Of a DNA stretch of 64,000 bases, positions 6,474 to 59,968 are shown one piece after another. A program made the translations under genes and the position numbers. The first letter of the stretch is position 1. Each line of letters starts with the position of its first letter. The notes beneath the pieces were generated by a model. That model saw only the letters and a program-made list of their open reading frames with translations. It had not been told where the DNA came from and made no database searches. Origin of the DNA: a bacterium (lineage in GTDB: Bacteria > Cyanobacteriota > Vampirovibrionia > Gastranaerophilales > Gastranaerophilaceae); contig JAGAXG010000038.1 of the NCBI GenBank assembly GCA_017941035.1, positions 129 through 64,128 of the forward strand, in the 5' to 3' direction.

Positions 6474-6478
6474 GAGGG

Positions 6479-29497: not shown

Positions 29498-30196
29498 TTA
29501 TTCATCAATTTTATTATCTTTTTTAGAATAATCCTGTGATATATAATCAGGATCAAAACCGGATAATTCAGCTAAACGATAACACGCTAAACCGTTGCCG
29601 TCGTGACAAGGGATTTGAACCCCTGAGAAAGTTTCTTTGTCATTAATATCTACCCAAGCTTCTGAACCTATATCACCGGCATGAATACCTTTATCTAAAT
29701 CATCTTCAGTTATAACTTGCACCTCGAAATAATCAACCCCGACAATGTTAGGTTCTTTTTTACCATTTAAATCAATTGATATAATAACGTCTCCTGTTTT
29801 ATAACAATCACAGCATACAGCTAAACCAACACCGTTTTTTAGTAAAACACTTCCGGAAGTATTTACAGCACCGCTACCGCCTTTGTAATTATAATATGAA
29901 TCAGAAAAACCATCATCATAATCATAAACTTTTCCTGTAGGATCGAAATTTAATAGAAATTTTTTAGAATCAGTACATATATTTGTATTGTTTAAATCAT
30001 TACTTCCGGCTTTAACAAGTTCATTTTGAACTATACTGTTTATATTTGTAACAGTTCCTCTTAATAAAGACATTTTTGATTTATTATTTGCATCTTTTAT
30101 CAATCCGGGAACTACCAAAATTGCTAAAATTCCTACAATTACCAAAGCAACGAGTATTTCACCCAATGTAAATCCTCTTTTTTTATTATTGATCAT
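29498..30196 (-). CDS. prepilin-type N-terminal domain protein (pilin/pseudopilin-like)
   Basis: The ATG at 30196 (MINNKKRGFTLGEILVALVIVGIL) lies 7 nt after GAGGA and is preferred over the ATG at 30250. Family motif DLNGKKEPNIVGVDYFEV. Confidence 0.8.
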   Translation of the reverse strand: MINNKKRGFTLGEILVALVIVGILAILVVPGLIKDANNKSKMSLLRGTVTNINSIVQNELVKAGSNDLNNTNICTDSKKFLLNFDPTGKVYDYDDGFSDSYYNYKGGSGAVNTSGSVLLKNGVGLAVCCDCYKTGDVIISIDLNGKKEPNIVGVDYFEVQVITEDDLDKGIHAGDIGSEAWVDINDKETFSGVQIPCHDGNGLACYRLAELSGFDPDYISQDYSKKDNKIDE

Positions 30197-30255
30197 AAAT
30201 TTATCCTCAATCATATTATTTATTTTAACATTATTTTTCAAAAAGTTCAATCTTC

Positions 30256-31048: not shown

Positions 31049-32053
31049 ATGACAGTAAAATTTGAAGGACAAGATAGACGTGAAGCTACTTTGAAAAAAG
31101 TTTTACCTGAATATGGTTTCAAATCTTTAGAAGAAGCTCGCGAGCTGTGTTTATCAAAAGGCATTGATGTAGATGCTATTGTTAAAGGTATTCAGCCTAT
31201 TGCGTTTGATAACGCATCTTGGGCTTATACATTAGGTGTTGCAATTGCAATTAAAAAAGGAATTACAAACGCTGCTGATGCAGCTGAAGCAATAGGTTTA
31301 GGTTTGCAAGCATTTGCGGTTCCCGGATCAGTTGGCGACAGACGTCAAGTTGGTATTGGTCATGGTAATTTAGGTGCTATGCTTTTAAGAGAAGAAACAA
31401 AATGTTTCTGCTTCTTAGCAGGTCACGAATCATTTGCAGCAGCTGAAGGTGCTATTGGTATAGCCAGAAACGCTGACAAAGTAAGAAAAGAGCCTTTAAG
31501 AGTTATCTTAAACGGTTTAGGTAAAGATGCTGCTTATGTAATTTCAAGAATTAACGGTTTTACTTATGTAGAAACTGAATACGATTACAAAACAGGAGAA
31601 TTAAAAGTTGTTAAAGAAACACCTTTCTCAGATGGAGAAAGAGCAAAAGTTAAATGCTACGGTGCTGATGATGTATCAGAAGGTGTTGCAATAATGATTA
31701 AAGAAGGTGTTGATGTTTCTATTACAGGAAATTCAACTAACCCAACTCGTTTCCAACACCCTGTTGCAGGTACTTACAAAAAATGGGCTATAGAAAATGG
31801 GAGAAAATACTTCTCAGTAGCTTCAGGTGGTGGTACAGGTCGTACATTACACCCTGACAACGTAGCCGCAGGGCCTGCTTCTTATGGTATGACTGATACA
31901 ATGGGAAGAATGCATGGAGATGCTCAATTTGCAGGTTCATCTTCAGTTCCTGCTCACGTAGAAATGATGGGCGTTATTGGTATGGGCAATAACCCTATGG
32001 TAGGAGCGACTGTAGCTTGTGCAGTTGCTGTTGCACAAGCAATGAACAAATAA
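31049..32053 (+). CDS. GGGtGRT family protein (function unknown)
   Basis: Contains the eponymous motif ASGGGTGRTLHPD. At 334 aa it has the typical family length. Confidence 0.85.
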   Translation: MTVKFEGQDRREATLKKVLPEYGFKSLEEARELCLSKGIDVDAIVKGIQPIAFDNASWAYTLGVAIAIKKGITNAADAAEAIGLGLQAFAVPGSVGDRRQVGIGHGNLGAMLLREETKCFCFLAGHESFAAAEGAIGIARNADKVRKEPLRVILNGLGKDAAYVISRINGFTYVETEYDYKTGELKVVKETPFSDGERAKVKCYGADDVSEGVAIMIKEGVDVSITGNSTNPTRFQHPVAGTYKKWAIENGRKYFSVASGGGTGRTLHPDNVAAGPASYGMTDTMGRMHGDAQFAGSSSVPAHVEMMGVIGMGNNPMVGATVACAVAVAQAMNK

Positions 32054-37709: not shown

Positions 37710-38489
37710 CTAGATAATATTTGCAAAGCTCAAAAAATATTGTTCAATAACATTCATCAGCATAGGTAAAATCCAAACCATAATTGCAGCTCCCAATACT
37801 GGCTTAAAAAGGAAACTTAATTGGAAAACATTTACCTGAGGAGCAGTTCTCGAAATTACGCCCAAAATAATATCCTGAGCCAGAGTAGCAAGCAAAATTG
37901 GAGATGCTATTTGCAAACCCATATACAAAGTATTTGAAGATAATTTAATTAATAAATCCATATTCGCGAGTTGAGCAAGCGGAATATGAACAGCATAAAT
38001 AGGGAATATTTCAAAGCTTCTCATCAATGCCTTAAAAAGCCAATAAATACCTCCCAGATTAATAAATATTAATAATCCCATCAAAGAAATTATATTACTC
38101 AAAATTGAAACTTGCCCTGAAGATGAAGGATCAAGTGTTGTAGCAGAAGTAAGCCCCATTTGCATATTAATCATTTCCGCTCCGCAATCTACAGCAATAA
38201 CTATAAGACGAGCCATATAACCAATTATTGCACCGACAACAATATTTAAAAATATTGATAATCCAAAAGAATCACATTGGCTTAAAACTTTTTCCGGCGA
38301 AAGCAAAGGTAGTATTGCACCAGTTATCAAAAGAGCGATAGGAATTTTTACAAGAGTTGGAATTTCTTTTCTCGAAAATACAGGAGCGAATCTGAAAAAT
38401 CCAAGCATTCTGGCAAGGATTAATGCTCCTGCCATAACGTAAGAATTAGCCATAGGAAATAATTTCATTAATTCTGCTGAAAAGTCCAT
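37710..38489 (-). CDS. fliR: flagellar/T3SS export-gate protein FliR
   Basis: 259-aa polytopic protein in the fliPQR position. The LARMLGFFRFAPVFS start is typical of FliR/SctT. Confidence 0.85.
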   Translation of the reverse strand: MDFSAELMKLFPMANSYVMAGALILARMLGFFRFAPVFSRKEIPTLVKIPIALLITGAILPLLSPEKVLSQCDSFGLSIFLNIVVGAIIGYMARLIVIAVDCGAEMINMQMGLTSATTLDPSSSGQVSILSNIISLMGLLIFINLGGIYWLFKALMRSFEIFPIYAVHIPLAQLANMDLLIKLSSNTLYMGLQIASPILLATLAQDIILGVISRTAPQVNVFQLSFLFKPVLGAAIMVWILPMLMNVIEQYFLSFANII

Positions 38490-38490
38490 T

Positions 38491-38979
38491 TTATCGTCCT
38501 ATAATCTTTTTAGTCTCTACAAAATCAGGTTTTGGCATCGGATTTTTTGAAGCTCTTGTGTATTTTTGTTTAGAATTTTTATCTACATAAGGAACTTTTC
38601 CAGGATGTTTCATAATATAATCTATATCATTGATATTTTTAAATTTATCTTTCATTTCTCCCGCAAAAGGTGTTGTATATTTATGATAACTTGCATCCAA
38701 GACAAAACTTTCACTTTGAGGAACAGTATTGAAAGCAAGCACTACACCTTCCTGAAATAAATTTGTTAAAAGTCTTATAAATCCCACTCCTCCAATTATA
38801 ATAACAAGAAAAACTCCCAAAATTTTCGGAGCAGCAGCAATTGTCTGCTCTTGAACTTGAGTAACAGCTTGCAAAATACCAACTACCAAACCTATACCAG
38901 CAGCTACTAATACGCAAGGCATTGAAATAGCCAACATTATTAAAAATCCTTTTGCCATATATTCTAGAAGTATTTCCAT
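38491..38979 (-). CDS. fliQ: export-gate protein FliQ with a C-terminal extension of about 73 aa
   Basis: The first ~89 aa match FliQ (GLVVGILQAVTQVQEQTIAAAPKILGVF). The frame then continues 73 further codons, hydrophilic and K-rich, to a stop 1 nt before the fliR ATG. Confidence 0.8.
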   Translation of the reverse strand: MEILLEYMAKGFLIMLAISMPCVLVAAGIGLVVGILQAVTQVQEQTIAAAPKILGVFLVIIIGGVGFIRLLTNLFQEGVVLAFNTVPQSESFVLDASYHKYTTPFAGEMKDKFKNINDIDYIMKHPGKVPYVDKNSKQKYTRASKNPMPKPDFVETKKIIGR

Positions 38980-39008
38980 AATTTAAGACCTCATAAAATT
39001 GTAAAACA

Positions 39009-39641
39009 TCAGTTGTAACTCGATACCAAACCCTGAACAATCAAAGCCCATCCGTCAACGGCTATAAATATCAATAATTTAAACGGCATAGATATAATTG
39101 TCGGGGACAGCATAAACATACCTAAGGCAAGTAAAATATTTGCAACGACCAAATCCAATATAATAAATGGTACAAATATTATAAAACTTATTTCAAAAGA
39201 AGTTTTTAATTCACTTATAATATATGCAGGAGCGACCTCCCAAACAGAAATATCATCCGGAGATTTAGGTTTTGTTTTATGCGTCATTTCTACAAAAAAT
39301 TCCAAATCCCCTTCACGGGTCTGTTTTAACATAAATTCTTTTAATGGTTTTGAGCCTTCATTTATAGCTTGAACAATATCATGATTTTTTTGATAAGGAA
39401 TAGAGCCCATTTCGTACATTTTTTGGAATGTACTACCCATTGTATAAAAAGTCAAAATCATTGAAAGACCTATAATTACCATTGCCGGAGGCACCTGCTG
39501 AGTTCCCATTGCAGTTTTTAGCATTGAAAACACAATAACAAAGCGCAAAAAACTTGTCATTGAACAAAAAACGAACGGTAACAGCGAAAATACCGACATC
39601 ATTACTAATATTTGTAATACAGGGTTAAGAGTTTGATCCAT
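39009..39641 (-). CDS. fliP: export-gate protein FliP
   Basis: FVIVFSMLKTAMGTQQVPPAMVIIGLSMILTFYTM matches the FliP signature region. Confidence 0.9.
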   Translation of the reverse strand: MDQTLNPVLQILVMMSVFSLLPFVFCSMTSFLRFVIVFSMLKTAMGTQQVPPAMVIIGLSMILTFYTMGSTFQKMYEMGSIPYQKNHDIVQAINEGSKPLKEFMLKQTREGDLEFFVEMTHKTKPKSPDDISVWEVAPAYIISELKTSFEISFIIFVPFIILDLVVANILLALGMFMLSPTIISMPFKLLIFIAVDGWALIVQGLVSSYN

Positions 39642-39650
39642 TATACTTCC

Positions 39651-40157
39651 TTACATACGATTTATTTTATTTGCCATTTCTCTCATTGTAGAAAATTCAT
39701 ATTCTTCTTTTTGCTGCTTTTGTTTTTCATAATTTTTGGAATTATAAGAACTTTTTCTTTTAAAACCTAAATTATTTTGATTTGATATAACTTCAAAATG
39801 AATTTTATCATCTTTAGTTTTTGATAATTCTTCAGCTGAACTATACTGTGGAATTTCAGTTATTACAGTATCAAAATCTTTTATATTCTTCTCTTTTTGA
39901 ATTGATTTTTCTTCTAATTTAGATATAAGAGTTGTTTTATCGACATCAGAAGCAATTAAAAATCTTTCACTTCCTGCCCTAATAATCATAAGCGATTTTC
40001 GTGGATTTATGCTCAATGTTTCTTCTACAAATAAATTTTGAGAATTTTTTATCCCTAAAGTTCCATTCATAACTTTTTTATAAACAAAAAGAGCACAAAA
40101 TATTAATCCTGACATCGCAAGTGTATAAACAGTAAAATTTATAATATAACCACCCAT
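39651..40157 (-). CDS. fliO: FliO-like single-pass membrane protein
   Basis: An N-terminal TM segment, the block SLMIIRAGSERFLIASDVDKTTLISKL, and the position immediately upstream of fliP. Confidence 0.5.
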   Translation of the reverse strand: MGGYIINFTVYTLAMSGLIFCALFVYKKVMNGTLGIKNSQNLFVEETLSINPRKSLMIIRAGSERFLIASDVDKTTLISKLEEKSIQKEKNIKDFDTVITEIPQYSSAEELSKTKDDKIHFEVISNQNNLGFKRKSSYNSKNYEKQKQQKEEYEFSTMREMANKINRM

Positions 40158-40168
40158 TATTAACCTCT

Positions 40169-41383
40169 TTATAAATTCTCATCTTCTAGTTCAAAATCAC
40201 TGTAATCAAAGTCTTCTTCGCCTTCTTCTGATTCTTTACCTTCATTGTATACTTCTTCCGAATCATTGTACTCTTCTTCATTTGCTTGCTCAGATTCATA
40301 AGATTCGTCTTCGTTCACGTTTTCATCTGATATGTCAGAGGATTGATCGCTGGAAATATTATCATTCCCAGCTATTATTTCAGTAATTTTAACGCCATAG
40401 CGATCATTTACAATTACCAACGAACCTTCCGCAATAGGCTTGCCCTCGACTTTTAATGTAACATTATTATTATATAATGATGCAATATCCACTACCAAAC
40501 CTTTTTCAATACTCTTTAAATCACCCAAACTGATTTTTACAGAATCAAGTTCCCCAATCATGTCCACTTCTATACTGTCCCATAAATTTTTACTTTCGGG
40601 CATAATATCATTTCCTCCAAAATTATTTTCATTATCAGGTACTAATAAATCCATATTCGGATTTACATTTATAGTCATTTCTTCTCCTAAAATATTTAGA
40701 GAAAGACTTTCCAAATCGCTATCTTCAAAAACAACAACATCCTCTTTTTCAAGATTTTTTAAATCATACATAGAAAAACGAGTTTTCCCTATTGTAATCT
40801 TTCCGCTAACTTCACTTTGGGTGAAATCATCTTTTGTAAATTTATCATCAGCAGACTCTATCATTTCCGGACTCAAAAGAGCAAACGGTAAGGTTACAAT
40901 AAATTTACCTGTATCTTTTACATTTTCATCAAGATCTTTTAAAATAAAAGTCAGATGTATCATGTCAAAATTTGTTCTTTTTATTTGAGTAGAATCAGGC
41001 TGATTTATATACTGTTTTAGTATATCGTACATTTCTCCGTTAAATGTCGTTATAATTTTTGCTTCCAATTCTGAAATATTATTTATATTGAATTTCTTAT
41101 TAGATTTACCTAAAATTTTACTAAGAATAATGTCCAAAACTTTTTCAGTTAACCGGAAAAACATATCATATTCTTGATCTATTTTTATTTTTGTAACAAA
41201 ACAGTATTCATCCTTTAAAAGACAATTTATATTTTTACTCAAACCAATAAACTCTAATTTAAAATTCTCAGAAAAAAAATTATCATAAGCATTCTGAACA
41301 ACAGGCGGAAATTTTTCTGAAAACCAGTTATACTGTTTATACAATTCTTTTGTAGATATTGAATCTTCAATATTTGCACTCAT
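40169..41383 (-). CDS. FliM/FliN-type switch/sorting-platform protein with a SpoA domain and an acidic C-terminal tail
   Basis: C-terminal SpoA/FliN motif SVKISLGDLKSIEKGLVVDIASLYNNNVTLKVEGKPIAEGSLVIVNDRYGVKITEI. An earlier SpoA-like segment is present (KITIGKTRFSMYDLKNLEKEDVVVFED). The last ~70 aa are D/E/S-rich. Confidence 0.7.
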   Translation of the reverse strand: MSANIEDSISTKELYKQYNWFSEKFPPVVQNAYDNFFSENFKLEFIGLSKNINCLLKDEYCFVTKIKIDQEYDMFFRLTEKVLDIILSKILGKSNKKFNINNISELEAKIITTFNGEMYDILKQYINQPDSTQIKRTNFDMIHLTFILKDLDENVKDTGKFIVTLPFALLSPEMIESADDKFTKDDFTQSEVSGKITIGKTRFSMYDLKNLEKEDVVVFEDSDLESLSLNILGEEMTINVNPNMDLLVPDNENNFGGNDIMPESKNLWDSIEVDMIGELDSVKISLGDLKSIEKGLVVDIASLYNNNVTLKVEGKPIAEGSLVIVNDRYGVKITEIIAGNDNISSDQSSDISDENVNEDESYESEQANEEEYNDSEEVYNEGKESEEGEEDFDYSDFELEDENL

Positions 41384-41948: not shown

Positions 41949-43184
41949 TTACATTCCCATATAAGATGCAAATAATGGTAAATATAATGCAGAAGCAAGA
42001 GTCAATACAATCGCACCAATTACAATCAACATGACCGGTTCAATCATTTTTGTCATTACGTCTATAATTGTATCTAATGCTTTATCAATATAGCTGACTG
42101 CTTGTCCTAGCATGTCACCTAAACGACCTGATTGTTCACCCGTTGCAATCATAAACAATATCATTTTTGGAATAGTTCTTGTAGCTCTTAAAGCAGCTGA
42201 TAAATGTTGTCCCTGTTGAATCCTGACAGTTGCTTCTTCCACTTTTGTCTCTAACGTATGGTTAGTTAATGTCAAAGTCGCAAGATATAAGCATTCTAAA
42301 ATAGGGACTCCTGCATCATAGGCAACTTCCATAACCGCCATGAAATTCGCGAAATTCGAAAATTGTATCAATTTAGATACTAATGGAATTTTTAATGATA
42401 ATTCATCTATTTTCCACTTTGTTGGGCGCCACTTAAATAAAAAGGTTACTACTGAAGTTACTACTATAAAACCTAAAGGTATAGAATACCAATTCTTTTT
42501 AAGAAATATACCCATGTCCATTAACTTTTGAGTAATCCATGGCAATTGCATACCCATTGAATCAAACATTTCCTTGAACACAGGGAATACAAACACAAGC
42601 ATGACTATTACAATAAATATCGCAAGTAAAATTACAAATACTGGATACATTAAAGTACCTATAACTTTACTTCTTATAGCTGATTGTTTATTCAAAAGTT
42701 CTAACAAACGATCCAAAGTTTTTTCAAGTTCACCTGAATCTTCACCCGTTTTCACAAGTCCAATATAAACCTGCCCAAATTGATCAGGATATTTTGCAAT
42801 AGTTCCGCCTAAAGTACCACCATTCATAATCTGACGACGTAATTCAGCAGCCACTTGTCTAATTTTTAACTTCGCAGCATCATTTTCAATAAACAATAAC
42901 GACTCAATTATAGGAATACCGGCAGCAGCCAATATTTGAAGAGTTGAAGTAAAATCTATTTGTTCTCCTAAACCCAATTTCGGCATTTTTCCATCTGCAA
43001 TACCCTTTGTATTTGATTTAGATTTTTGATTTACAGCGTAATTATTTTCTTCAACTATATTAGTAACAATAAACCCGAGTTTTTTTACTTCACTTCGGGC
43101 AGAACGCATGTCAGAAGCTTCTACTTTTCCTTTTACTATTTCATTTGTTCCGTTTTTGTAAGCCGTATAATTATATATCGCCAT
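41949..43184 (-). CDS. pilC: type IV pilus/T2SS platform protein (PilC/GspF family)
   Basis: 411 aa with two GspF-type repeats (GEDSGELEKTLDRL and ATGEQSGRLGDMLGQ) and three TM regions. Confidence 0.9.
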   Translation of the reverse strand: MAIYNYTAYKNGTNEIVKGKVEASDMRSARSEVKKLGFIVTNIVEENNYAVNQKSKSNTKGIADGKMPKLGLGEQIDFTSTLQILAAAGIPIIESLLFIENDAAKLKIRQVAAELRRQIMNGGTLGGTIAKYPDQFGQVYIGLVKTGEDSGELEKTLDRLLELLNKQSAIRSKVIGTLMYPVFVILLAIFIVIVMLVFVFPVFKEMFDSMGMQLPWITQKLMDMGIFLKKNWYSIPLGFIVVTSVVTFLFKWRPTKWKIDELSLKIPLVSKLIQFSNFANFMAVMEVAYDAGVPILECLYLATLTLTNHTLETKVEEATVRIQQGQHLSAALRATRTIPKMILFMIATGEQSGRLGDMLGQAVSYIDKALDTIIDVMTKMIEPVMLIVIGAIVLTLASALYLPLFASYMGM

Positions 43185-43191
43185 AAACTAC

Positions 43192-45225
43192 CTACTCACC
43201 CGCTAAACCCAATACTCTAACAAATTCATCTATTGATGTTGAACCTTCTATTATATGCTTATAGCATGATAAATTTAAAGTCGTCATGCCATTTTTTACT
43301 GCACTTTCTTCTATTTCCAAATCATGCGCACCTTGAGCGATTAATTTCTTTATTTCCCTTGTTATAGGCATGATTTCATATACACCCATACGACCTTTAT
43401 AACCTTGGAATCCGCATCTGCTGCATCCAACAGGTTTATAAATTGTCGTATTCATCAATTTTTTTATATATTCTTCATTTTGAGTAATTTTCATTGCCTC
43501 TTCTCTTGTAGGATTATAACCCTCTTTACAATGAGGACATAGTTTTCTTACAAGACGTTGTGCAATTACACCTGACAAAGTAGAAGAAACTAAATAATCT
43601 TTTGCTCCCATTTCAATCAAACGAGTAACTGTAGCTGCAGCTGAATTCGTGTGAACTGTACTCAAAACTAAGTGACCGGTTAATGCCGCTGATATTGCGG
43701 TTTCTAATGTTTCATAATCACGGATTTCACCGACTAATATAATATCAGGGTCCTGACGCAGTATTGCTCTCATACAAGACGCAAAAGTAATACCTGCTTT
43801 TACGTTTACTTGAGATTGATTGATACCGTCCAACTTAATTTCAATAGGGTCTTCAATAGTAGTTATATTTACAGATTCATCATTTAGACTCTTTAAAATA
43901 GAATAAAGAGTCGTTGTTTTACCTGAACCGGTAGGACCTGAGGTAAGTATAATTCCATTTGGACATGATATCATTTGAGAAATTTTTTTTATATCCTCTT
44001 TGTGAGCACCATTTAATACTATCTCTTTATCTCCTGATTCTAAACTCACAGCAGGGGCTAAAATACGAATTACAACCTTTTCTTTCCCTGAAACAGGCAG
44101 CGTATTTATACGAAAATCATATGTATAATCATTATACGTTAGTGAAAAAGTTCCATCCTGCGGTCTTCTTTGTTCAGCAATATTCATTCTTGACATTACC
44201 TTAAAACGCGTAATGACAGATATCTCTGACTTCTGGGGGATATCAAGAACTTTTTGAAGCATACCGTCTTTTCTGTAACGTACAATGTAACCTTTTAAAC
44301 GTGGTTCTATATGAATATCAGAAATTTTACTATCAATAGCATTGGTTATTATCTGATTTACAAACTTTGCAACTGATCCTGTTGAATCTTGTAATTCTGC
44401 ATCAACCTGTTCCCAAAGAGTAGTTGTTTCATCAGCATCAACGTTTTCTTCTTTTATTTGTTCTATAAGTTCTTCTGTTTCTTTTTTAGCTTTTGAAAAG
44501 AATGCTTCAATCGATGACCTAAACTCATAATGAGTCATTAAAATCTGTTTAGGATTCAAACCTGTTAAATAAATTATTTGCTTTAATACATCGGCTTTTA
44601 CAGGTTTTACAGCACCTATAAGCAATGTTTTACCATCTGAAGATATAGGAATTACCGAATTCGCCTTTATAAAATCTTCAGGTAAAATTTTTATAAATTC
44701 TCTCTGAGATGACAATTGTTCTTTTGTTACAAGATCAAAACCTGTCTGATCATGAAGTGCCTCTTTCAACTCATCTAAAGAAATTAAACCCATCTCAAAA
44801 AGCATTGAACCAATAGGAACATGTTTTTTCTTTGACTCAGCCAAAGCATTTAACAATTGTACTTCTGTAATCTTGCCTTTAGCAATTAATATATCGCCTA
44901 AACGTTTATCTTTGTTAGCTTTTCTTGATTCTTCATCTACATGAGCTAATGGTGAATTTTCTAAATCTTCTTCAGAAATAAAACCTTTCATTAAATCTAA
45001 CAAATCATCAGAACCTACTAACATAAATTTAATAGGATTTTGATAATAAACTTTTAAAACCTTATTTACTTCATCTTTATTTGAATTTTTTGATACCGCA
45101 ACAAATAAAAAATTCTGCTTAATATTAATGGGGACAAATTGGTACTTCCCCATTAAACTTGAATCAATATCATCTATAATTTTTTTATCTATACTATTTT
45201 TTAGTCTTAATATTAATGCATTCAT
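43192..45225 (-). CDS. pilB: type IV pilus/T2SS assembly ATPase (PilB/GspE family) with two N-terminal T2SSE_N-type domains
   Basis: Walker A GPTGSGKTTT, Asp/His boxes, and the tetracysteine CPHC...CSRC motif. Confidence 0.92.
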   Translation of the reverse strand: MNALILRLKNSIDKKIIDDIDSSLMGKYQFVPINIKQNFLFVAVSKNSNKDEVNKVLKVYYQNPIKFMLVGSDDLLDLMKGFISEEDLENSPLAHVDEESRKANKDKRLGDILIAKGKITEVQLLNALAESKKKHVPIGSMLFEMGLISLDELKEALHDQTGFDLVTKEQLSSQREFIKILPEDFIKANSVIPISSDGKTLLIGAVKPVKADVLKQIIYLTGLNPKQILMTHYEFRSSIEAFFSKAKKETEELIEQIKEENVDADETTTLWEQVDAELQDSTGSVAKFVNQIITNAIDSKISDIHIEPRLKGYIVRYRKDGMLQKVLDIPQKSEISVITRFKVMSRMNIAEQRRPQDGTFSLTYNDYTYDFRINTLPVSGKEKVVIRILAPAVSLESGDKEIVLNGAHKEDIKKISQMISCPNGIILTSGPTGSGKTTTLYSILKSLNDESVNITTIEDPIEIKLDGINQSQVNVKAGITFASCMRAILRQDPDIILVGEIRDYETLETAISAALTGHLVLSTVHTNSAAATVTRLIEMGAKDYLVSSTLSGVIAQRLVRKLCPHCKEGYNPTREEAMKITQNEEYIKKLMNTTIYKPVGCSRCGFQGYKGRMGVYEIMPITREIKKLIAQGAHDLEIEESAVKNGMTTLNLSCYKHIIEGSTSIDEFVRVLGLAGE

Positions 45226-45235
45226 TTTTATTATC

Positions 45236-47134
45236 TTAAAGGGCTATCTCATTATCCACAGCATCTTCAGTATCTACTAATATCTGAGGAGTTAACATAA
45301 TAACCATTTCTTCTTTTGCTTTAGAAGTAGATGTACTTCTAAAGAACATACCCACTACCGGTAAATCACCTAGTAAAGGTATTTTTGAAACAGACTTAGT
45401 TTCAGATTCCTGAATCAAACCACCTATAACAAGCGTTTCACCATCCTTTATTCTAACGCCTTTTAAACTCAAACTACGTCTTGCCAACAATGTAGCTTGA
45501 ATATCACCGTTTATATCTTCTAATTTTTCACTAATAGTATTATATTCAGGTTCTATATCAAGAACAATATATCCGTCAGGACTGATAAACGGAGTTATTG
45601 TGACATTAATACCGTTATCACTTTCAATATCATAATCACGCTGAACCTGAGAAGATCCGCCACCTGTTGAATCAAGATATTGAGAAGTAACTTTTGACAC
45701 ATAATCAGAAGACAAATCAATTGTAGATTCTTGACCGCTTGTCAAAAGAACTCTTGGATTAGCAAGAACACGGCCTTTACGATTAGTTAAAATATAATTC
45801 ATTGCATAGGTTAACTGACTTGAAGAACCCCATCTTGAATATGTGTTACTATCCTTTGAGGAATCCATTGTATAACCGCTTCCGGAGAAAAATATCGGGT
45901 GTTCCGCGTATGTTCCCGTATTACCGTTTGCAGCATTGAATGAAAAATTCTTACTCAAATAAGTCCAAGTATTACTAAACGATTTCATACCATCTTCATT
46001 TAAAGAAATTATTTGAACTTCTAAATATGCTTGCGGAGATTTTTTATCATTTTGGGCAATATAATCTCTAATCATTTCGATTTGAGAACTTGAACCGCCA
46101 ATAATTTGAATAGTACCCAAAGTAGGGAAATACACTACGCTCATATTTTTAAAAGGTAAAGCTGAAATTTCTCCACCGGACATATTTTGATCAATAGAAC
46201 AAGCTAATGTACCTCCTCCAACAGCTATACCATCTCCACCGCCTGAAGAAGAACCTCCAGAAGAACTTGAACTACTTGAAGATGAATTCCTGCTTGATGA
46301 AGATGAACTTCTGCTTGAAGAACTTGAACTGCTTGATGAGGAAGCAAAACCGGTCGGTGCACCTTTTATACTTGCGGCTCCGCCAGTTGTATTACCGCTT
46401 TTTTTATTTCCATTAACGGATGGTAAAAAAGTAGAACAAACTAAATCCGCCATTTCTGCAGGTGTAACATGATTAACTTTGAATGTTGTAATTGAAGGTT
46501 TTTTATCAAATTGTTCTACTATTCTTTGAGCCAAAAGAGCGTCTGATTTAGTACCCATAATAATTAACTCATTTGTTGCCGGATTCACAGACACAACAGG
46601 TTTTGAAGAAACCCCGGGAGTTATACCTGAACCTTTCTTAAAGAAATTTGAATTCAAAAAAGTTGCAAGAGAACTTGCACTAACATATTTTACAGGGATT
46701 AAAATAAGATTTTTAGCCCCGGAAGATGAAATCTCCTCATCACCTGAGCCTATAATTAAAGTATTGGCTTGAATATCATAAGAAAGCTTCGTAGTTGAAA
46801 TTACAAGGTTTAGAGCTTTTTCTAATGTAATATTTACAAGATCCATAGTTACAGTACCACTGACCGAAGGAGAAAATATAATATTCATTCCTGCTTGATC
46901 AGCAAACATTCTCAATACTTGTTTAACATCTGCTTCTCTAAGGCTTAAATTTACGACAGAATTCGCATTGCCAATTTGCACATCAGAACCAACATCTAAT
47001 GATGTTATGCTTTGTTCTGACCTGAGCATAGGGCTATAATCAAGCCCCATAGCTAAAACTGCTGACGTATTCATAAAAAAGAACGATGTCAACATCAAAC
47101 TTGCAACTATTTTTTCTCTAATCTTATTTTTCAT
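45236..47134 (-). CDS. pilQ: secretin (PilQ/GspD family) with a Ser-rich insert
   Basis: C-terminal secretin motif VSKIPLLGDLPVVGMFFRS. The ATG at 47134 (MKNKIREKIVASLMLTSFFFMNTSAVLA signal) is preferred to the ATG at 47182. Confidence 0.85.
   Translation of the reverse strand: MKNKIREKIVASLMLTSFFFMNTSAVLAMGLDYSPMLRSEQSITSLDVGSDVQIGNANSVVNLSLREADVKQVLRMFADQAGMNIIFSPSVSGTVTMDLVNITLEKALNLVISTTKLSYDIQANTLIIGSGDEEISSSGAKNLILIPVKYVSASSLATFLNSNFFKKGSGITPGVSSKPVVSVNPATNELIIMGTKSDALLAQRIVEQFDKKPSITTFKVNHVTPAEMADLVCSTFLPSVNGNKKSGNTTGGAASIKGAPTGFASSSSSSSSSSRSSSSSSRNSSSSSSSSSGGSSSGGGDGIAVGGGTLACSIDQNMSGGEISALPFKNMSVVYFPTLGTIQIIGGSSSQIEMIRDYIAQNDKKSPQAYLEVQIISLNEDGMKSFSNTWTYLSKNFSFNAANGNTGTYAEHPIFFSGSGYTMDSSKDSNTYSRWGSSSQLTYAMNYILTNRKGRVLANPRVLLTSGQESTIDLSSDYVSKVTSQYLDSTGGGSSQVQRDYDIESDNGINVTITPFISPDGYIVLDIEPEYNTISEKLEDINGDIQATLLARRSLSLKGVRIKDGETLVIGGLIQESETKSVSKIPLLGDLPVVGMFFRSTSTSKAKEEMVIMLTPQILVDTEDAVDNEIAL
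46232..46345 (-). repeat. low-complexity Ser/Gly-coding region inside the secretin gene
   Basis: It encodes ASSSSSSSSSSRSSSSSSRNSSSSSSSSSGGSSSGGGDG using mixed AGY/TCN codons, with imperfect repeats of roughly 27 nt. Confidence 0.85.
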
Positions 47135-47162
47135 ATCTACACCCATATTACTTAGTTTAATA

Positions 47163-47927
47163 CTATCCTCGTCGTCCACCAAACCTATTTTTCAAATTGT
47201 AAATATCATTCTGGTTTTTAGAGAGTTCATCTTTGGAAAATAACTCTCCAACAGCAGCAGAATAAACATTTGACCCCATACTTACAGTAATCCAAGTAGG
47301 GTTGATTTTAACAACTTTATATTCTTGACCAATAATCTTATCCCCTATGCGAACAAGATAATCTTTTTGATCAACATTAATAATTGCCGAAGGACTTTGA
47401 GCATTATACATTATACCAACGACCTTAGTTTTGGTAATTTTTGAAGCATAAGAATTTTCACCGCCCAACTTCGTAGGAGGTACAGGCAAATTAAAACTGT
47501 AAGGACTTATATCATCAGGTTCTCTAATTGCTACATTTTGAAGTTTTTTTATCTTGGCAATTTCTGAATTGTAAGCATTAGCCTCAGCTATTGCTGAATT
47601 TCTTGCTTCATCATATGCTTGAATTTCATCAAACGGCATGAACGGATCAGCACGACCTACTGTCAAAACATCATATGATACCATTCTTCCTGAGCCTTGA
47701 GCTTCATCTTCAACATCTAATTCGACAGTTCTGGTATTCTCCGATGGAACATTAACAACTTCTCTTGAATGTCTGACAGGAGATTTTTTAGAATTTTTAT
47801 TAATCTTCTGCTCTCCACAACCGGATAACATAAAACCTGCAAGCAAAACTGATACAAGAAAGATAGAAAATTTCTTTAAATGTTTAAATTTATAAGTATT
47901 ATTCATATGATTTGTATATTTTTTCAA
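47163..47927 (-). CDS. PilP-like lipoprotein, first gene of the pilus operon
   Basis: Lipobox FMLSGC. The C-terminal block VVGIMYNAQSPSAIINVDQKDYLVRIGDKI...YKVVKINPTWITV resembles the PilP beta-domain. Confidence 0.5.
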   Translation of the reverse strand: MKKYTNHMNNTYKFKHLKKFSIFLVSVLLAGFMLSGCGEQKINKNSKKSPVRHSREVVNVPSENTRTVELDVEDEAQGSGRMVSYDVLTVGRADPFMPFDEIQAYDEARNSAIAEANAYNSEIAKIKKLQNVAIREPDDISPYSFNLPVPPTKLGGENSYASKITKTKVVGIMYNAQSPSAIINVDQKDYLVRIGDKIIGQEYKVVKINPTWITVSMGSNVYSAAVGELFSKDELSKNQNDIYNLKNRFGGRRG

Positions 47928-50285: not shown

Positions 50286-51014
50286 ATGAAAAAGAAAGCA
50301 TTTACATTACCAGAAGTATTACTAACAATCGGAGTAATCGGAGTAATATCAGCTATTACAATACCTCAATTAGTAATGAGTCAGCAAGCTTCTCAAGCAA
50401 AAGCAAGATTTAATACTGCATACTCAATGATTGCAAAAGCTGTTGCAGATATGGAAACAGATGAAGTTTCTACCGATCCTAATGACTATAAAACTGCCGG
50501 ATCTTTTTATAATGTATTCAAAAACTATTTCAAAGTTACCATAGATTGCGGAATTTATTCAGGAACTAAAAATTCTGATACTTGTGTAGTATCAACTACT
50601 GACGATACTGGTCATATTACAACTAATGAACAAGAATCAAATAATTATTTAACAAAAAAAGGAAATACGAAAGTAGATCATACATTACTTGATGATGGAG
50701 CTTTTGTTACTAATAATGGAATGCTTTTTATTATAGAGAACACAACTGATAATTCATTCGGGCTTTTAGTTTCTGTAGATATTAACGGTAAAAACAAACG
50801 TCCAAACAGATGGGGTTGGGACTTATTTACTTTTGAAATTAAAGATGGTGAAGTAATACCTGTAGGCGAGTCTGAAACAAGTTACAGTTCATGGAAAAAT
50901 AACCCTGCAAACTACTGTAATAATTCAACAGATAGCCCACACAATGGAGTAACATGCGCTTCTTTTGCTACGACAGAAAAAGATTATTTCAAAAAAACAT
51001 ATGGCGGTAAATAA
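50286..51014 (+). CDS. prepilin-type N-terminal domain protein (pilin/pseudopilin-like)
   Basis: MKKKAFTLPEVLLTIGVIGVISAITIPQL, with the family motif DINGKNKRPNRWGWDLFTF. An AAGGA SD lies upstream. Confidence 0.8.
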   Translation: MKKKAFTLPEVLLTIGVIGVISAITIPQLVMSQQASQAKARFNTAYSMIAKAVADMETDEVSTDPNDYKTAGSFYNVFKNYFKVTIDCGIYSGTKNSDTCVVSTTDDTGHITTNEQESNNYLTKKGNTKVDHTLLDDGAFVTNNGMLFIIENTTDNSFGLLVSVDINGKNKRPNRWGWDLFTFEIKDGEVIPVGESETSYSSWKNNPANYCNNSTDSPHNGVTCASFATTEKDYFKKTYGGK

Positions 51015-51768: not shown

Positions 51769-52404
51769 TTATTTACCAATACAAACAACCGCTCTAGCTG
51801 TTGTTATAGTACCTGTATTCACCTTAGATTCAGGTCCTCCAACATACCATGCTCTGTTTGCATTTAAAGCACCACTAGCCCAAAAAACTCTATCAAATAT
51901 ACCAAAATCTTTCAGTTTATTAGTAACCTCTATATTTGAGGATTTTATATTCGGATAGTTAGATGAACAACCACCACCTACATTCCCTCCACTAAATAAT
52001 ATGGATGGACCATTTGCCTGGCAATAAAATTGTATAAGTTCACCTCGCGTGGGTAAATGCATATTTATTTCCTCACATTTTTTTATTGCAGCATACCATT
52101 TGTTATCTGAACAAACTGTCTCATCACCCATTCCTTTTTCAGTACTATTACAAGTATTTATACCTGATTCGGTTTCACACGACTGATTTAAATCTTTTCC
52201 ACAATAATCAAATCCAATAATTTTAAATTTTGTATATTCACCTATTGCCGGGTTTAAGTATCCATTGGGATTTGCAACTATGTAATCATTAAGTTTAGTT
52301 ACCCCTCCTATAAATTCTATATCTGTTGGAACTGTTTTTTGAAGTTTTGATAAAAGAATTCTTTTTTCAATACTAATAAACTTAAATTTTAATATTAAAT
52401 AATT
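51769..52404 (-). pseudogene. 5'-truncated lectin-like domain copy of the pilin-lectin family (no pilin N-terminus; first ATG at 52131)
   Basis: The frame is open from 52404, overlapping the folC stop, with no ATG, GTG or TTG before 52131. The product has NKWYAAIKKCEEINMHLPTRGELIQF ... ARAVVCIGK. This is the same W..A...C....HLPT..EL ... C[IV] pattern as the C-termini of 5178-6404 and 58868-59968. Confidence 0.55.
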
Positions 52405-58540: not shown

Positions 58541-58762
58541 TCATAGTTTAAAATCCAGCATTGAGAATATTGTTATGTTAAATGCTCCTGAGATTTGAAG
58601 TAAATTTGTATACCTTATATCAGTAAAACCACGTTCTATATCACTTATTGTCCTGATCGAAACATTAGCAAGTTCAGCAAGCTTTTCTTGCGACATATCC
58701 CTTTTTATTCGTTCAAGACGTATTTTATTTCCCAATTCCAATAATCTGATATCTTTTTTCAT
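58541..58762 (-). CDS. XRE-family HTH regulator, divergent from the pilin-lectin gene
   Basis: LGNKIRLERIKRDMSQEKLAELANVSIRTISDIERG HTH_3 motif. 73 aa. Confidence 0.75.
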   Translation of the reverse strand: MKKDIRLLELGNKIRLERIKRDMSQEKLAELANVSIRTISDIERGFTDIRYTNLLQISGAFNITIFSMLDFKL

Positions 58763-58779: not shown

Positions 58780-58807
58780 TTGAAAATTTTATTAAATGTG
58801 TTATAAT
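58780..58807 (+). promoter_or_regulatory. strong sigma70 promoter with extended -10 (TTGAAA-N16-TGtTATAAT) for the pilin-lectin gene
   Basis: TTGAAA lies at 58780-58785, TG at 58799-58800 and TATAAT at 58802-58807. Confidence 0.55.
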
Positions 58808-58867: not shown

Positions 58868-59968
58868 ATGAAATTAAGAGGATTCACTCTCGCAGAAACA
58901 TTAATCGCACTGGGGATTATCGGAATAATTGCAGCATTGACTTTGCCGACACTGATTACGACAATTTCAAATGTTGTAACAGAAAATCAAAAAGCGGTAT
59001 TCCAAAGAAAACTGTCTAAGGGTGCTGATTTATTGAATATAGATAACGGCATCGGACCATATTATTCTGATACTGAATCATTTGTAAAACGTTTATCTGA
59101 ACATTTAAAGATTGTTACAATTTGTGGTAAAGATAATCTTAAAAATTGTTTGACATATGATACAATTCAACAGAATGGAACAGAACCGTTCAATGTAGAG
59201 GACATTACAACAGATACTTTTACAGGATTAGCTGAAAATAAAGAGTATCTGGATGCTGCAGGATTTGTATTAGGGGATGGTACACCAATGATACTTACAT
59301 ACCAAAAAGATTGTCCTGTATCAGACCCTGATGAAGTAAAGTATTCAGGGAGTAAGAAAAATGCCATATCTAACCATACAAGCTGTATCGCAGGCTTTTA
59401 TGATTTAAACGGAGTTAAAGGACCGAACAAATTTGGTAAAGATATTGTCCCTTTTAATGGCGTCTCAGGTCTAAAAAATACTTGGATATCTTTTGCAGGA
59501 TTTAAGGTCACTACTCCTAAAGTTCCTAATCCTATAAAAACAGCAGATTATTGCGAACAAAACGGTAATAATTGGACATTAAAATCTGATTATAGAACAA
59601 ATTATAATATAAACAGTTGTTGTACTAATTCTGGGTGCAAAACTACAGGTGATTATTGGGCAGGAGCAATGATTGAATGTAAAGATATAGGTGGGCATTT
59701 ACCAACTGAGTCTCAATTAACAACTATTGCATCATATTTATATGATGACGGAAACTTAGCTTCTTATTCTATTAGGATAAATAAATCAAAATTAGGCCCT
59801 CTCGCTGGTTTTGATTTAGAATCCGGCGGAAGTATATATTTGTGGGGTACTAGAGATTCTGGTACTGATTATTACCGTCGCCATTTTGCTCGTAATTATA
59901 CTGATGATGATTATATGGATGTTCGTAAACAGTCATATTTAATGGCGCTTTGTATAAAAGGGGATTAA
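58868..59968 (+). CDS. pilin-like protein (class III signal, GFTLAE) fused to a C-terminal lectin-like domain; paralog of 5178-6404
   Basis: MKLRGFTLAETLIALGIIGIIAALTLPTL with a GGAGG SD upstream. It shares long blocks with 5178-6404. The C-terminal pattern is GDYWAGAMIECKDIGGHLPTESQL ... LMALCIKGD. Confidence 0.82.
   Translation: MKLRGFTLAETLIALGIIGIIAALTLPTLITTISNVVTENQKAVFQRKLSKGADLLNIDNGIGPYYSDTESFVKRLSEHLKIVTICGKDNLKNCLTYDTIQQNGTEPFNVEDITTDTFTGLAENKEYLDAAGFVLGDGTPMILTYQKDCPVSDPDEVKYSGSKKNAISNHTSCIAGFYDLNGVKGPNKFGKDIVPFNGVSGLKNTWISFAGFKVTTPKVPNPIKTADYCEQNGNNWTLKSDYRTNYNINSCCTNSGCKTTGDYWAGAMIECKDIGGHLPTESQLTTIASYLYDDGNLASYSIRINKSKLGPLAGFDLESGGSIYLWGTRDSGTDYYRRHFARNYTDDDYMDVRKQSYLMALCIKGD

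Follow-up and report, generated by a model that had tools for sequence, protein, structure and literature searches.

Two paralogous prepilin genes with a C-terminal module

The window, i.e. the whole 64,000-nucleotide stretch of DNA that was analysed, carries two related genes, hereafter paralog 1 and paralog 2. Paralog 1 displays the following features:

58868-59968, + strand: paralog 1, complete modular prepilin gene, 366 aa (ORF; TIGR02532 above cutoff)
59513-59965, + strand: lectin-like (DUF1566/Lcl_C-related) C-terminal module (AF2 domain model, hhalign, invariant Cys)
59783-59965, + strand: most variable segment, aa 306-366 (identity to paralog 2, column entropy)
58780-58807, + strand: promoter-like site, TTGAAA-16-TATAAT with a TG extension (consensus scan, 11/12 matches; pattern match only)

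The features of paralog 2 are the following:

5178-6404, - strand: paralog 2, 408-aa ORF (BLASTP to paralog 1)
5181-5633, - strand: lectin-like module (alignment)
6445-6473, - strand: promoter-like site, TTGCGA-17-TATAAT (consensus scan)
6402-6417, - strand: Shine-Dalgarno sequence AAGGAG (6417-6412), 7-nt spacer and ATG (6404-6402) (sequence read)
6365-6374, - strand: G10 tract (C10 on the + strand), putative slipped-strand ON/OFF switch (homopolymer scan, locus comparison)
6288-6290, - strand: internal in-frame GTG, 10 codons ahead of Phe+1 (sequence read)

A preliminary description of this DNA had presented the two genes as paralogs, and both ORFs exist and share 50% identity over 376 columns (BLASTP, E 2e-116). 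Paralog 1 has a 5-aa leader (MKLRG|F) and Glu5; its pilin module covers about aa 1-215 and is followed by the lectin-like module, aa 216-366. Paralog 2 begins with a 47-aa N-terminal extension. Then come A|FTLAE, starting at residue 48, the pilin body and, last, the lectin-like module. The motif said to open both genes is found in both translations (paralog 1, GFTLAETLIAL; paralog 2, AFTLAETLIAL), but in paralog 2 it lies at residue 48 and not at the start of the ORF. Other motifs can be read directly in the translations of the paralogs (DLNGVKGPNKFGKD and DLNGSKGPNRFGKD), and the Cys-rich C-terminal region with a GDYWAGAM-type pattern, also pointed out previously, is present in both of them; it spans 150 aa in each paralog and corresponds to the common motif CC..(S/D)..C.T.GDYWAGAM..CKD.GGHL.T, ending with ...C[IV]K.

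The leader of paralog 1 (MKLRG|FTLAE) is of the fully canonical class III type. Its N-terminus reaches 20.9 bits with TIGR02532 (cutoff 16.3) and 21.1 bits with the Pfam family N_methyl (PF07963), i.e. just under the cutoff of 21.2, whereas paralog 2, in which the same motif is present, falls below both cutoffs (13.7 and 14.0 bits, respectively). The profile of the family matches solved pilins (E 6e-7), and Glu5, a residue tied to the assembly of type IV filaments, is found in 49/49 homologs. The residue at position -1 of these 49 homologs is Ala in 40 cases and Gly in 9, paralog 2 having Ala, and the leaders called in homologs range from 4 to 121 aa. To our knowledge, the prepilin leaders described so far are much shorter than the 47 aa of paralog 2. 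The AF2 model of paralog 1 (pLDDT 84.7) shows a long N-terminal helix (residues 8-58) followed by a beta-sheet; a Foldseek search of the PDB with this full-length model gave no significant match. The class III prepilin N-terminus proposed earlier is thus supported by the TIGR02532 score of paralog 1, the invariance of Glu5 and the match with solved pilins. In both proteins, this class III (prepilin) N-terminus with its Glu5 is followed by a pilin body and by a compact C-terminal module, each of which contains Cys.

Relationship of the C-terminal module to DUF1566/Lcl_C

The C-terminal module had been related to DUF1566 and to C-type-lectin folds. None of the Pfam families Lcl_C (PF07603), Lectin_C and FGE has any match in either window protein, even at E<=10, and the Pfam and NCBIfam scans of both proteins recovered the pilin N-terminus alone. 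Among homologs, PF07603 matches were obtained for 5 out of 25 homologous domains, all below threshold (best E 1.1e-4), and the full-length relatives scanned reach at most 19.8 bits, versus a gathering cutoff of 34.9. The head domain of one homolog matches in tblastn a Bacteroides phage gene noted as DUF1566 (E 6e-5); the phage proteins that provide this bridge are themselves under Pfam's own PF07603 cutoff (30.1 and 26.1 bits versus 34.9). When profiles are compared with hhalign, the alignment of the heads matches this single phage protein with 87.5% probability (P 3.6e-6) and the PF07603-annotated family, represented by 20 proteins of which most have a precomputed PF07603 match, with 93.9% probability (E 1.5e-7, 73 columns). 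The core shared in this alignment is W..A...C...LPT..EL ... (Y/L)WSS.E..A(W/Y). On the strength of these comparisons, the C-terminal module and DUF1566/Lcl_C are remotely homologous, at the profile level only; the proposed affiliation therefore stands for the family taken as a profile but does not extend to Pfam matches on the window proteins. An indexed search with the head profile retrieved only members of the family, none of them with a Pfam label, and ten proteins harbouring the head domain in other architectures have no Pfam match.

The AF2 model of the paralog 1 head is of high confidence (pLDDT 90.8, pTM 0.86). Foldseek yielded no match with E<0.09, whether the PDB was searched with the full-length and head models or BFVD with the head model, so that the structural comparison anticipated in the preliminary description provides no significant match. 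The matches of highest probability are C-type-lectin folds in both libraries: the Link module of TSG-6 (0.20) and the CTLD of CD72 (0.15) (E>0.3, not significant), and the C-type lectins of Ranid herpesvirus (0.60; TM 0.40, rmsd 3.4 A over 98 columns, E>0.3) and pigeonpox (0.44, E>0.3). The head aligns with the TSG-6 Link module with only 10.6% probability in hhalign (P 0.003), and when the full-length and head profiles were run against the sequences of the PDB, they retrieved pilin N-termini, chance matches and a non-significant mannose-receptor match (E ~2). The heads do not have the marks of a canonical Ca2+-dependent C-type lectin: PF00059 has no Pfam match and the EPN/QPD and WND motifs are absent from both C-terminal sequences.

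DUF1566 was reported to have a C-type-lectin-like fold, and Lcl's C-terminal domain, which is C-type-lectin-like, binds glycosaminoglycans/sulphated glycans; DUF1566 has no clear general role, although trimerisation may be part of it (PMC11162425). The heads of the window family resemble the domain at the C-terminus of Lcl, the Legionella collagen-like adhesin, and DUF1566 (PF07603) by their remote homology and by the shared core motif. They differ from the Lcl domain by two invariant cysteines (Cys271 and Cys362 in paralog 1, conserved in all of the 51 homologs), by extra N-terminal Cys and by a pilin as carrier, and from PF07603 members by scores below the Pfam cutoff.

A variable C-terminal end

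The two paralogs share only 20% identity over the last ~60 aa. Elsewhere the identity is higher, with 70% for the N-terminal helix, 54% for the pilin body and 51% for the first part of the C-terminal domain. In an alignment of 51 homologs, this end also has the highest column entropy (2.29 bits versus 1.2-1.9 elsewhere). Both measures agree with the divergence that had been noticed at this end. In paralog 1, the segment (aa 306-366) corresponds to the predicted last four beta-strands with their loops. When paralog 2 was compared with a close paralog in windows of 40 codons, dN/dS was below 1 throughout (maximum 0.36); since dS is saturated, these windows are uninformative about positive selection at the variable end.

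A poly-G tract in the leader of paralog 2

The G10 tract of paralog 2 is the sole G/C homopolymer of at least 7 nt in the 64 kb of the window, whose GC content is 31%. The tract, the long leader that contains it and the size of the gene family were all missed by the preliminary description. The tract lies 10 codons past the ATG at 6404, inside the 47-aa extension, the promoter-like site and this start codon being both located upstream of it; another ATG, in a different frame, is found at 6396-6394. Unlike paralog 2, paralog 1 is devoid of any such tract. At the syntenic locus in other samples, the tract reads G11, G12, G12 or G8TGG and is bordered by identical flanks. Beside this varying tract, the end of the gene has 0 substitutions over its last 417-660 nt in 8 of the 10 other contigs, and the two remaining ones show 1 and 3 substitutions, all located more than 590 nt from the gene end.

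The length of the tract determines which start codon is in frame with the pilin. With G10, as in the window, the frame is open from the ATG that follows the Shine-Dalgarno sequence (SD-ATG) into the pilin; with G11, both upstream ATGs lead to stops; with G12, only the second, poorly placed ATG is in frame. The gene caller picked the internal GTG in the G11 variant (product of 370 aa), and the protein P0008 was called from the second ATG in the G12 variant. If used as an alternative start, the GTG (6290-6288) would provide paralog 2 with a canonical 10-aa leader, MTGEGKRHVA|F.

Such tracts recur ahead of pilin genes throughout the order Gastranaerophilales. Among 80 related loci, 21 tracts of at least 8 nt were observed versus 0.7 expected, and 15 of them are located at most 250 nt upstream of the pilin N-terminus, a zone which accounts for 4.6% of the bases (P 3e-16). 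Many independent metagenome-assembled genomes (MAGs) from different studies have tracts of 9-15 nt, always in the same relative position. The frame of the SD-ATG relative to the pilin is 0, 1 or 2 depending on the assembly, and within a given assembly most of the paralogs are out of frame. From the tract to the pilin, the frame is open in 18 out of 20 cases versus 4.1 expected, which indicates that the leader is translated through. At one locus (L070), the tract and the pilin codons are a mere 17 nt apart; no other start fits into this interval, and the upstream ATG must therefore be the start codon.

Tract variants of +1 and +2 were also detected inside single sequencing runs when Logan contigs were aligned with the locus. 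The cassette made of the promoter and leader of paralog 2 recurs at another paralog (L082) and is multi-copy in metagenomes, its depth in Logan being 10-50 times that of the flanks and contigs breaking there, so that these within-run variants are not assignable to the paralog 2 locus. A DNA pattern combining leader and tract had no match in the JGI metagenome contigs, and no prior description of phase variation, homopolymers or pilins in Melainabacteria/Gastranaerophilales was found in the literature.

Other copies of the family and filament machinery

The window also harbours the following features:

15479-16132, - strand: degraded third copy (HMM 5e-10; BLASTP E 1.2e-17; translation)
51772-52404, - strand: lectin-like domain ORF without pilin N-terminus (HMM 3.7e-8; BLASTP to paralog 1 E 5e-5)
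41949-47182, - strand: type IV filament machinery set, a candidate for the assembly of these subunits (Pfam matches), composed of the next three genes
41949-43184, - strand: PilC/GspF-like gene (Pfam T2SSF 4e-43)
43192-45225, - strand: PilB/GspE-like ATPase gene, with an MshEN domain (Pfam T2SSE 5e-125)
45236-47182, - strand: secretin gene (Pfam Secretin 5e-39)

Paralogs 1 and 2, described initially as a pair, are a real pair but not the only copies. The degraded copy matches residues 186-373 of paralog 2, contains in-frame stops and lacks the N-terminal half, and hundreds of relatives are found outside the window: 618 matches were obtained, and 563 stretches were confirmed in genomes of Gastranaerophilales species. 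For the head domain, an exhaustive search of representatives gave 794 clusters (50% identity), and the 150 of these 794 that were listed are all members of the family; more than 25 copies of the domain are found in a single MAG. Five more prepilin-like ORFs of the window lack the lectin-like domain. No prepilin peptidase (Peptidase_A24) was found among the window ORFs scanned; pilD was reported in another Gastranaerophilales genome (PMC5877343).

Alternative explanations

The location of the variability could recall diversity-generating retroelements (DGRs), the last ~60 aa being then a variable region whose sequence a reverse transcriptase would renew by means of a template repeat, as in Mtd and TvpA. 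DUF1566 is reported to be the commonest Pfam domain among DGR targets, in which the variable region is C-terminal within a C-type-lectin fold (PMC6642488); moreover, at the ends of close homologs the scaffold is fixed and the positions that vary are rich in N, S, Y, D, G and T, and the Bacteroides phage DUF1566 gene mentioned above is near a gene with a reverse-transcriptase note. However, no repeat of either 3' end is found anywhere in the window, no reverse-transcriptase domain was detected among the window ORFs scanned, and synonymous sites are saturated in the variable end too. The 3' ends of about 45 related genes match only the same region of paralogs at other loci, and hence there is no template repeat within their 3-kb flanks. 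The variable region of paralog 2 shows 0 differences across ten samples and is thus not hypermutating; this invariance and the lack of a template repeat in the window and in these flanks largely refute such an origin at the paralog 2 locus and leave it without support, so that we regard it as highly improbable. A weak shared match at 22061-22093 is an AT-rich chance similarity. The class III N-terminus could also be a mere membrane anchor or a pseudopilin-type export signal, in which case the proteins would not be pilus subunits but an expanded prepilin-like family, envelope-anchored or periplasmic, with heads devoted to a non-adhesive role such as nutrient capture or oligomerisation. The seven prepilin-like ORFs and the degraded copy are scattered over the 64 kb among housekeeping genes, outside pilus operons; this dispersal, the high copy number of the head domain in one MAG, the prevalence of Ala(-1), the very long called leaders and the possible trimerisation role of DUF1566 would all be in keeping with an anchor. 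Glu5 is nevertheless invariant, a PilB/PilC/secretin set is encoded within the window, and molecules exposed at the surface are typically those that undergo phase variation. We consider this reading as a whole, anchored proteins with non-adhesive heads, to be unlikely.

As for the tract, its different lengths might be non-regulatory, i.e. result from assembly or sequencing errors or from fixed differences between strains, the pilin being translated from the GTG at 6290-6288 regardless. Short-read assemblies are indeed prone to error in homopolymers, all the evidence on the tract is at the contig level, and this GTG, with its canonical 10-aa basic leader, is the start that the gene caller chose in the G11 variant. 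Such a view hardly accounts for the recurrence of tracts of 9-15 nt in independent MAGs (P 3e-16), the excess of open frames between tract and pilin (18/20 versus 4.1 expected), the 17-nt distance in L070, which imposes the upstream ATG as start, or the fact that the tract alone varies, within flanks and a gene that are otherwise identical. We regard length differences devoid of any regulatory role as quite improbable.

A proposed model for the display and switching of the heads

The two genes probably encode phase-variable modular type IV pilin-like adhesins of a Gastranaerophilales (Melainabacteria) gut bacterium, a subset of such genes being switched by poly-G tracts. We infer that these proteins are displayed on pili and act as adhesins, and the process can be pictured as follows. 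The hydrophobic helix would insert the protein into the inner membrane, where prepilin peptidase would cleave after Gly/Ala(-1), and the PilB/PilC/secretin machine encoded by the window would then build the protein into a filament. Given its bulky head, the subunit is probably located at the filament tip or rare. The head may bind a glycan or another ligand of gut surfaces, with a specificity set by the variable last ~60 aa and thus differing between the paralogs. In a subset of the many genomic paralogs, including paralog 2 but not paralog 1, the poly-G tract would act as a switch: preceded by a strong SD-ATG and followed by the pilin N-terminus, within a translated leader of unusual length, it would be ON as G10 and OFF as G11. 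Through slipped-strand changes of the tracts, each cell would display a different set of heads.

More tentatively, and with slightly more doubt than confidence, the whole family could be viewed as a large contingency repertoire, in which each genome would carry dozens of prepilin genes, each head having its own specificity, with a subset stochastically switched by poly-G/poly-C tracts in long Ala(-1) leaders. If so, the prepilin peptidase would have to accept an Ala where it cleaves as well as leader lengths of 30-100 aa, and an antigenic/adhesive variation similar to that of Neisseria would exist in a commensal lineage in which no case has been described.

Comparison with known systems and significance

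The InterPro entry of PF07603 (DUF1566) is IPR011460. Modular type IV pilins with adhesive heads are established and were the subject of a global survey; in Streptococcus sanguinis, PilB carries a vWA module and PilC a ConA-like lectin module (PMC8179133). In the supplement of this survey, 7 proteins have the architecture IPR012902-IPR011460 and 2 more have it with two copies, and the association of a pilin N-terminus with IPR011460 is therefore already catalogued among 'modular pilins' (PMC8179133). As in these pilins, a class III signal peptide and a pilin module are followed in the window family by a grafted module, here a putative binding one. Unlike them, its head is too diverged to be recognized by Pfam, it has expanded within a single order to dozens of copies in each genome, and it usually displays Ala(-1), long leaders and, in a subset, a poly-G tract.

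Neisseria pilC harbours a poly-G tract in the region coding for its signal peptide. More generally, contingency loci based on simple sequence repeats are known in Neisseria and Campylobacter (PMC5084427, PMC3025981). Paralog 2 and its relatives share with such loci a long G tract in the 5' coding region of a gene for a surface structure, whose length shifts the frame, and a multiplicity of paralogs, most of them out of frame in any single assembly. As putative contingency genes, they differ from the Neisseria and Campylobacter loci by the location of the tract in an extended prepilin leader, by two overlapping start codons in different frames and by their hosts, which are uncultured, non-photosynthetic gut commensals related to cyanobacteria. 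With DGR proteins (Mtd, TvpA and DUF1566 targets; PMC6642488), the family shares the variability of the C-terminal end and, presumably, the fold class, but neither a template repeat nor a reverse transcriptase was found in the window, and the variable end of paralog 2 does not differ between samples.

If the proposed switching of pilin-borne adhesins holds, this head family, part of it hypermutable in an on/off manner, would be the main candidate surface-recognition system of Gastranaerophilales. These bacteria are widespread in the guts of humans and animals; as far as we know, none of them has been cultured, and their interaction with the host is almost entirely uncharacterized. Recombinant heads would be concrete targets for binding studies, and the long tract-bearing leaders and Ala(-1) bear on what prepilin peptidases can process. 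With respect to annotation, the head family (~800 clusters at 50% identity), which is missed by Pfam, belongs with DUF1566, and many 'partial' or N-terminally truncated calls in Gastranaerophilales MAGs correspond to tract-induced frame changes or to assembly breaks in the shared leader cassette.

Domain anatomy and divergence of the two paralogs

Two genes of the window encode a prepilin that ends in a Cys-rich lectin-like domain (hereafter the head).

58868-59968, + strand: paralog 1, ORF of 366 aa
5178-6404, - strand: paralog 2, ORF of 408 aa

Both ORFs were found as located in a preliminary description, which is a real finding with a largely correct interpretation, and they are paralogous (50% identity on 376 columns, E 2e-116). 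All the motifs that it quoted are present: (G/A)FTLAETLIAL, DLNG.KGPN.FGKD, the Cys-rich GDYWAGAM..CKD.GGHL.T and a terminal C[IV]K. Its statement that both proteins begin with the pilin motif holds for paralog 1, which has a canonical 5-aa leader without any poly-G tract; paralog 2 also carries the motif, but at residue 48, behind a 47-aa extension. The proposed variable C-terminal end was confirmed: the paralogs share 70% of residues in the N-terminal helix, 54% in the pilin body and 51% in the first portion of the C-terminal domain, as against only 20% in the last 61 residues, where column entropy among 51 homologs also reaches its maximum (2.29 bits). These proteins are best read as a new, strongly diverged and much expanded kind of modular pilin. 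A small XRE-type HTH gene (58541-58762, - strand) is divergent from paralog 1.

The class III N-terminus of paralog 1 exceeds the TIGR02532 cutoff (20.9 versus 16.3 bits) and falls 0.1 bit short of that of Pfam N_methyl; paralog 2 is under both cutoffs, yet has the same motif. The family profile matches solved pilins along the N-terminal helix (E 6e-7 to 1e-3). The fifth mature residue is Glu in 49/49 homologs; directly before the cleavage site (-1), 40 of them have Ala and nine have Gly. The AlphaFold model of paralog 1 (pLDDT 84.7) is pilin-like, with a helix (8-58) followed by a beta-sheet; Foldseek found no significant match to the full-length model. Four Cys of the pilin body are invariant among homologs.

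The lectin-like head

The head had been likened to DUF1566 (now Lcl_C, PF07603), which presumably corresponds to IPR011460, and to related C-type-lectin folds. With the tests proposed in the preliminary description, this relation is not seen for the window proteins alone: neither matches Lcl_C, Lectin_C or FGE in Pfam, even at E<=10, and Foldseek found nothing significant for a confident head-only model (pLDDT 90.8, pTM 0.86). It emerges at the family level. PF07603 is matched by five of 25 homologous domains scanned (best E 1.1e-4) and is the only family matched by more than two of them; full-length relatives score 13-19.8 bits against it (cutoff 34.9). In a tblastn search of phage genomes, the domain of one homolog matched a DUF1566-noted gene of Dulem virus 29 (E 6e-5) and a Bacteroides phage 'DUF1566 domain-containing protein' (E 1). 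With hhalign, the domain alignment matched the Dulem virus 29 protein (87.5% probability) and an alignment of 20 relatives of the latter, nearly all with a precomputed PF07603 match (93.9% probability, E 1.5e-7, 73 columns, from DYWAGA..C via LPT..EL to LWS.E..AY.R.F). The top-probability Foldseek matches in two independent libraries, none of them significant, all have a C-type-lectin fold: the TSG-6 Link module, CD72 CTLD, rhodocetin, a pigeonpox virus C-type lectin and a ranid herpesvirus C-type lectin (probability 0.60, rmsd 3.4 Å, 98 columns). Crystallography showed that Lcl's C-terminal domain, which contains DUF1566, resembles C-type-lectin-like domains, and this domain binds sulphated glycosaminoglycans (PMC11162425). 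On the strength of these comparisons, we regard the head as distantly related to DUF1566, though below Pfam's own threshold for membership.

The head differs from the Lcl domain by two invariant Cys (271 and 362) and an N-terminal Cys-rich hairpin. From a reading of the secondary structure, these two Cys are predicted to sit at the position of the C-type-lectin alpha1-beta5 disulfide. The EPN/QPD and WND motifs are absent from the head, which is therefore no canonical Ca2+-type lectin.

Size and distribution of the family

The window has a GC content of 31%. A search with paralog 1 retrieved 618 proteins, all from metagenome-assembled genomes (MAGs) labelled uncultured 'bacterium'. When one genome per species was scanned, 563 stretches were confirmed, from which 80 loci were kept. 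Nearly all of these either bear the label Gastranaerophilales, Melainabacteria or gut 'Cyanobacteria' or come from obviously mislabelled gut MAGs; their hosts are ruminants, humans, rabbits and chickens, and several loci occur per MAG. A single MAG encodes more than 25 partial proteins with the head. An exhaustive profile search with the head gave 794 clusters at 50% identity, 433 of them at E<=1e-10. It also found the head outside pilins: a 6345-aa protein has four copies and a 693-aa protein two, while several proteins of 320-380 aa carry it at the N-terminus (non-pilin set: P0173, P0155, P0182, P0259 and P0265). Pfam recognised nothing in the scanned non-pilin proteins, P0173 being left out.

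Two other ORFs of the window are related to the paralogs.

15479-16132, - strand: degraded third pilin-lectin copy, matching residues 186-373 of paralog 2 (BLASTP E 1.2e-17)
51772-52404, - strand: head-only ORF (HMM E 3.7e-8)

In-frame stops interrupt the third copy, and its N-terminal half is gone. The head-only ORF, which has neither a pilin N-terminus nor an obvious signal peptide and whose upstream end overlaps the end of a Mur-ligase-like ORF, may represent either a copy that was truncated or another architecture.

Filament genes of the window

The window also carries genes of a type IV filament machine and prepilin-like ORFs without the head.

41949-47182, - strand: PilC-like gene, PilB-like ATPase and secretin
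18101-18757, + strand: prepilin-like ORF, AFTL(A/T)E (motif scan)
26633-27322, + strand: prepilin-like ORF, AFTL(A/T)E (motif scan)
28685-29482, - strand: prepilin-like ORF, AFTL(A/T)E (motif scan)
29498-30250, - strand: prepilin-like ORF, GFTLGE
50286-51014, + strand: prepilin-like ORF, found by Pfam only

The five headless ORFs are dispersed amid housekeeping genes, and the four that were read in translation, all except 50286-51014, share D.NG..(K/E)PN..G.D.F with both paralogs. The PilB-like ATPase bears an MshEN domain. None of the window's scanned ORFs encodes a prepilin peptidase; pilD was reported in another Gastranaerophilales genome (PMC5877343). Flagellar export genes (37710-41383, - strand), encoding a FliN-domain protein, FliO, FliP and FliQ-like (Bac_export_3) and FliR-like (Bac_export_1) proteins, adjoin the PilC/PilB/secretin genes. 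A full-length GGGtGRT protein is encoded at 31049-32053 (+ strand; PF14057, E 6e-194).

Poly-G tracts in pilin leaders

The leader of paralog 2 holds a poly-G tract, which formed no part of the preliminary description.

6473-6445, - strand: promoter-like site, TTGCGA-17-TATAAT
6417-6412, - strand: strong Shine-Dalgarno site (SD), AAGGAG
6404, - strand: ATG start
6374-6365, - strand (gene strand): G10 tract, ten codons past the ATG

This G10, the sole G or C run of at least 7 nt in the 64-kb window, is followed by 33 open codons and then A|FTLAE. At the syntenic locus of other samples, the 75 nt 5' of the tract are identical and the tract itself is G11 (L085), G12 (L081, L087) or G8TGG (L086). 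With G10, the SD-ATG and the pilin share a frame. With G11, both upstream ATGs hit stops and the gene caller resorts to an internal GTG (370 aa); likewise, the G11-bearing close paralog in L082 is called from a TTG within the helix (P0005). With G12, the ATG in frame is a second one, which lies 8 nt further downstream and is poorly spaced from the SD (P0008, 406 aa). Tract variants of +1 and +2 also occur among contigs of single sequencing runs; they are not assignable to one locus because the promoter-leader cassette, whose depth in metagenomes is 10-50 times that of its flanks (single-copy genes), is common to many paralogs. The near-identical cassette comprises promoter, SD, leader and N-terminal coding sequence (6405-6478 and 6000-6400, - strand; 1260-1500 in L082). 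Contigs of many assemblies break at it, which would account for the numerous genes called as 'partial' in these MAGs. Along the gene, dS varies unevenly between 0.35 and 2.0, an indication of gene conversion.

The association of tracts with pilin genes extends across the order. The 80 related loci (454 kb) contain 21 G/C tracts of 9-15 nt, as compared with 0.7 expected from composition (runs of at least 8 nt), and 15 of the 21 are situated no more than 250 nt upstream of a pilin N-terminus, in a stretch holding 4.6% of all bases (binomial P 3e-16). The same order of SD-ATG, 8-13 codons, tract, open frame and pilin is found repeatedly, with the SD-ATG in frame 0, 1 or 2 depending on the assembly. 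The pilin frame is open from tract to pilin in 18/20 cases (4.1 expected), which argues that the leader is read through in translation and is no separate upstream element. In L070, the tract-pilin gap is only 17 nt, which leaves the upstream ATG as the sole possible start. In L057, L062 and L065, poly-C (C10) replaces poly-G on the coding strand within the same layout. The long called leaders of P0042, P0055, P0063, P0076, P0099 and P0120 contain recurring peptides, for instance PCHPEERSDVGIASS and RFAPQDDMILNDSSL, which look like a translated GC-rich palindromic repeat element between tract and pilin codons; this element is absent from the window's two genes. The closest analogue known to us is Neisseria pilC, whose signal peptide is encoded by a region containing a poly-G tract.

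Proposed mode of action and origin of the variable end

The following model can be proposed. A prepilin peptidase would cut after Gly/Ala(-1), and the protein would enter the filament, probably at its tip, as argued for modular pilins (PMC8179133); the paralogs would work like PilB and PilC of S. sanguinis. The architectures listed in the supplement of this 2021 survey include pilin N-termini with IPR011460 (PMC8179133). The head would bind a ligand, probably a glycan, with a specificity set by the variable end. Slipped-strand mispairing at the tract would open or close the frame stochastically (ON/OFF), as at the classical contingency loci known from Neisseria and Campylobacter (PMC5084427, PMC3025981). 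Together, these steps would generate a variable display repertoire. It is rather unlikely that the prepilin N-terminus is merely an anchor and that the proteins never reach the filament; the conserved Glu5 and the filament machine genes speak against this reading. That the tract has no effect on expression, the internal GTG being used, or that its length differences are artefactual, is less probable still, given the open leader frames. For Melainabacteria, no account of this pilin family, of homopolymeric tracts or of phase variation turned up in the literature searched. Long leaders with poly-G tracts, Ala at -1 and the sheer size of the family together make for a novel variant that merits experimental follow-up.

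Since DUF1566 is the commonest reported domain of the targets of diversity-generating retroelements (DGRs), with a C-terminal variable region (PMC6642488), the action of a DGR on the variable end was tested; it was not supported and is very improbable. Among ten other contigs of the paralog 2 locus, defined by an identical downstream BlaI-like gene, eight show no difference over the final 417-660 nt of the gene; the remaining two carry 1 and 3 differences, each located more than 590 nt from the gene end. No repeat of the 3' end of either paralog exists anywhere in the window. The 3' ends of about 45 related genes match solely the corresponding region of paralogs at other loci, hence no template repeat lies in their 3-kb flanks. 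Between paralog 2 and a close paralog, dN/dS is maximal in the last 40 codons at 0.36, thus below 1, with dS saturated. Accordingly, the variability of the end is divergence between paralogs, with no ongoing hypermutation.

The gene following paralog 2 encodes a BlaI/MecI-type repressor (4742-5086, - strand), an arrangement kept in 10/10 other contigs of the locus. In Bacteroides phage BS-TP1 (L083; PQ571274.1, 77864-80613), a 'DUF1566 domain-containing protein' is encoded three genes away from a 'tail protein', in the note of which a reverse-transcriptase PHROG is named; the pair probably belongs to a DGR that has a DUF1566 target.
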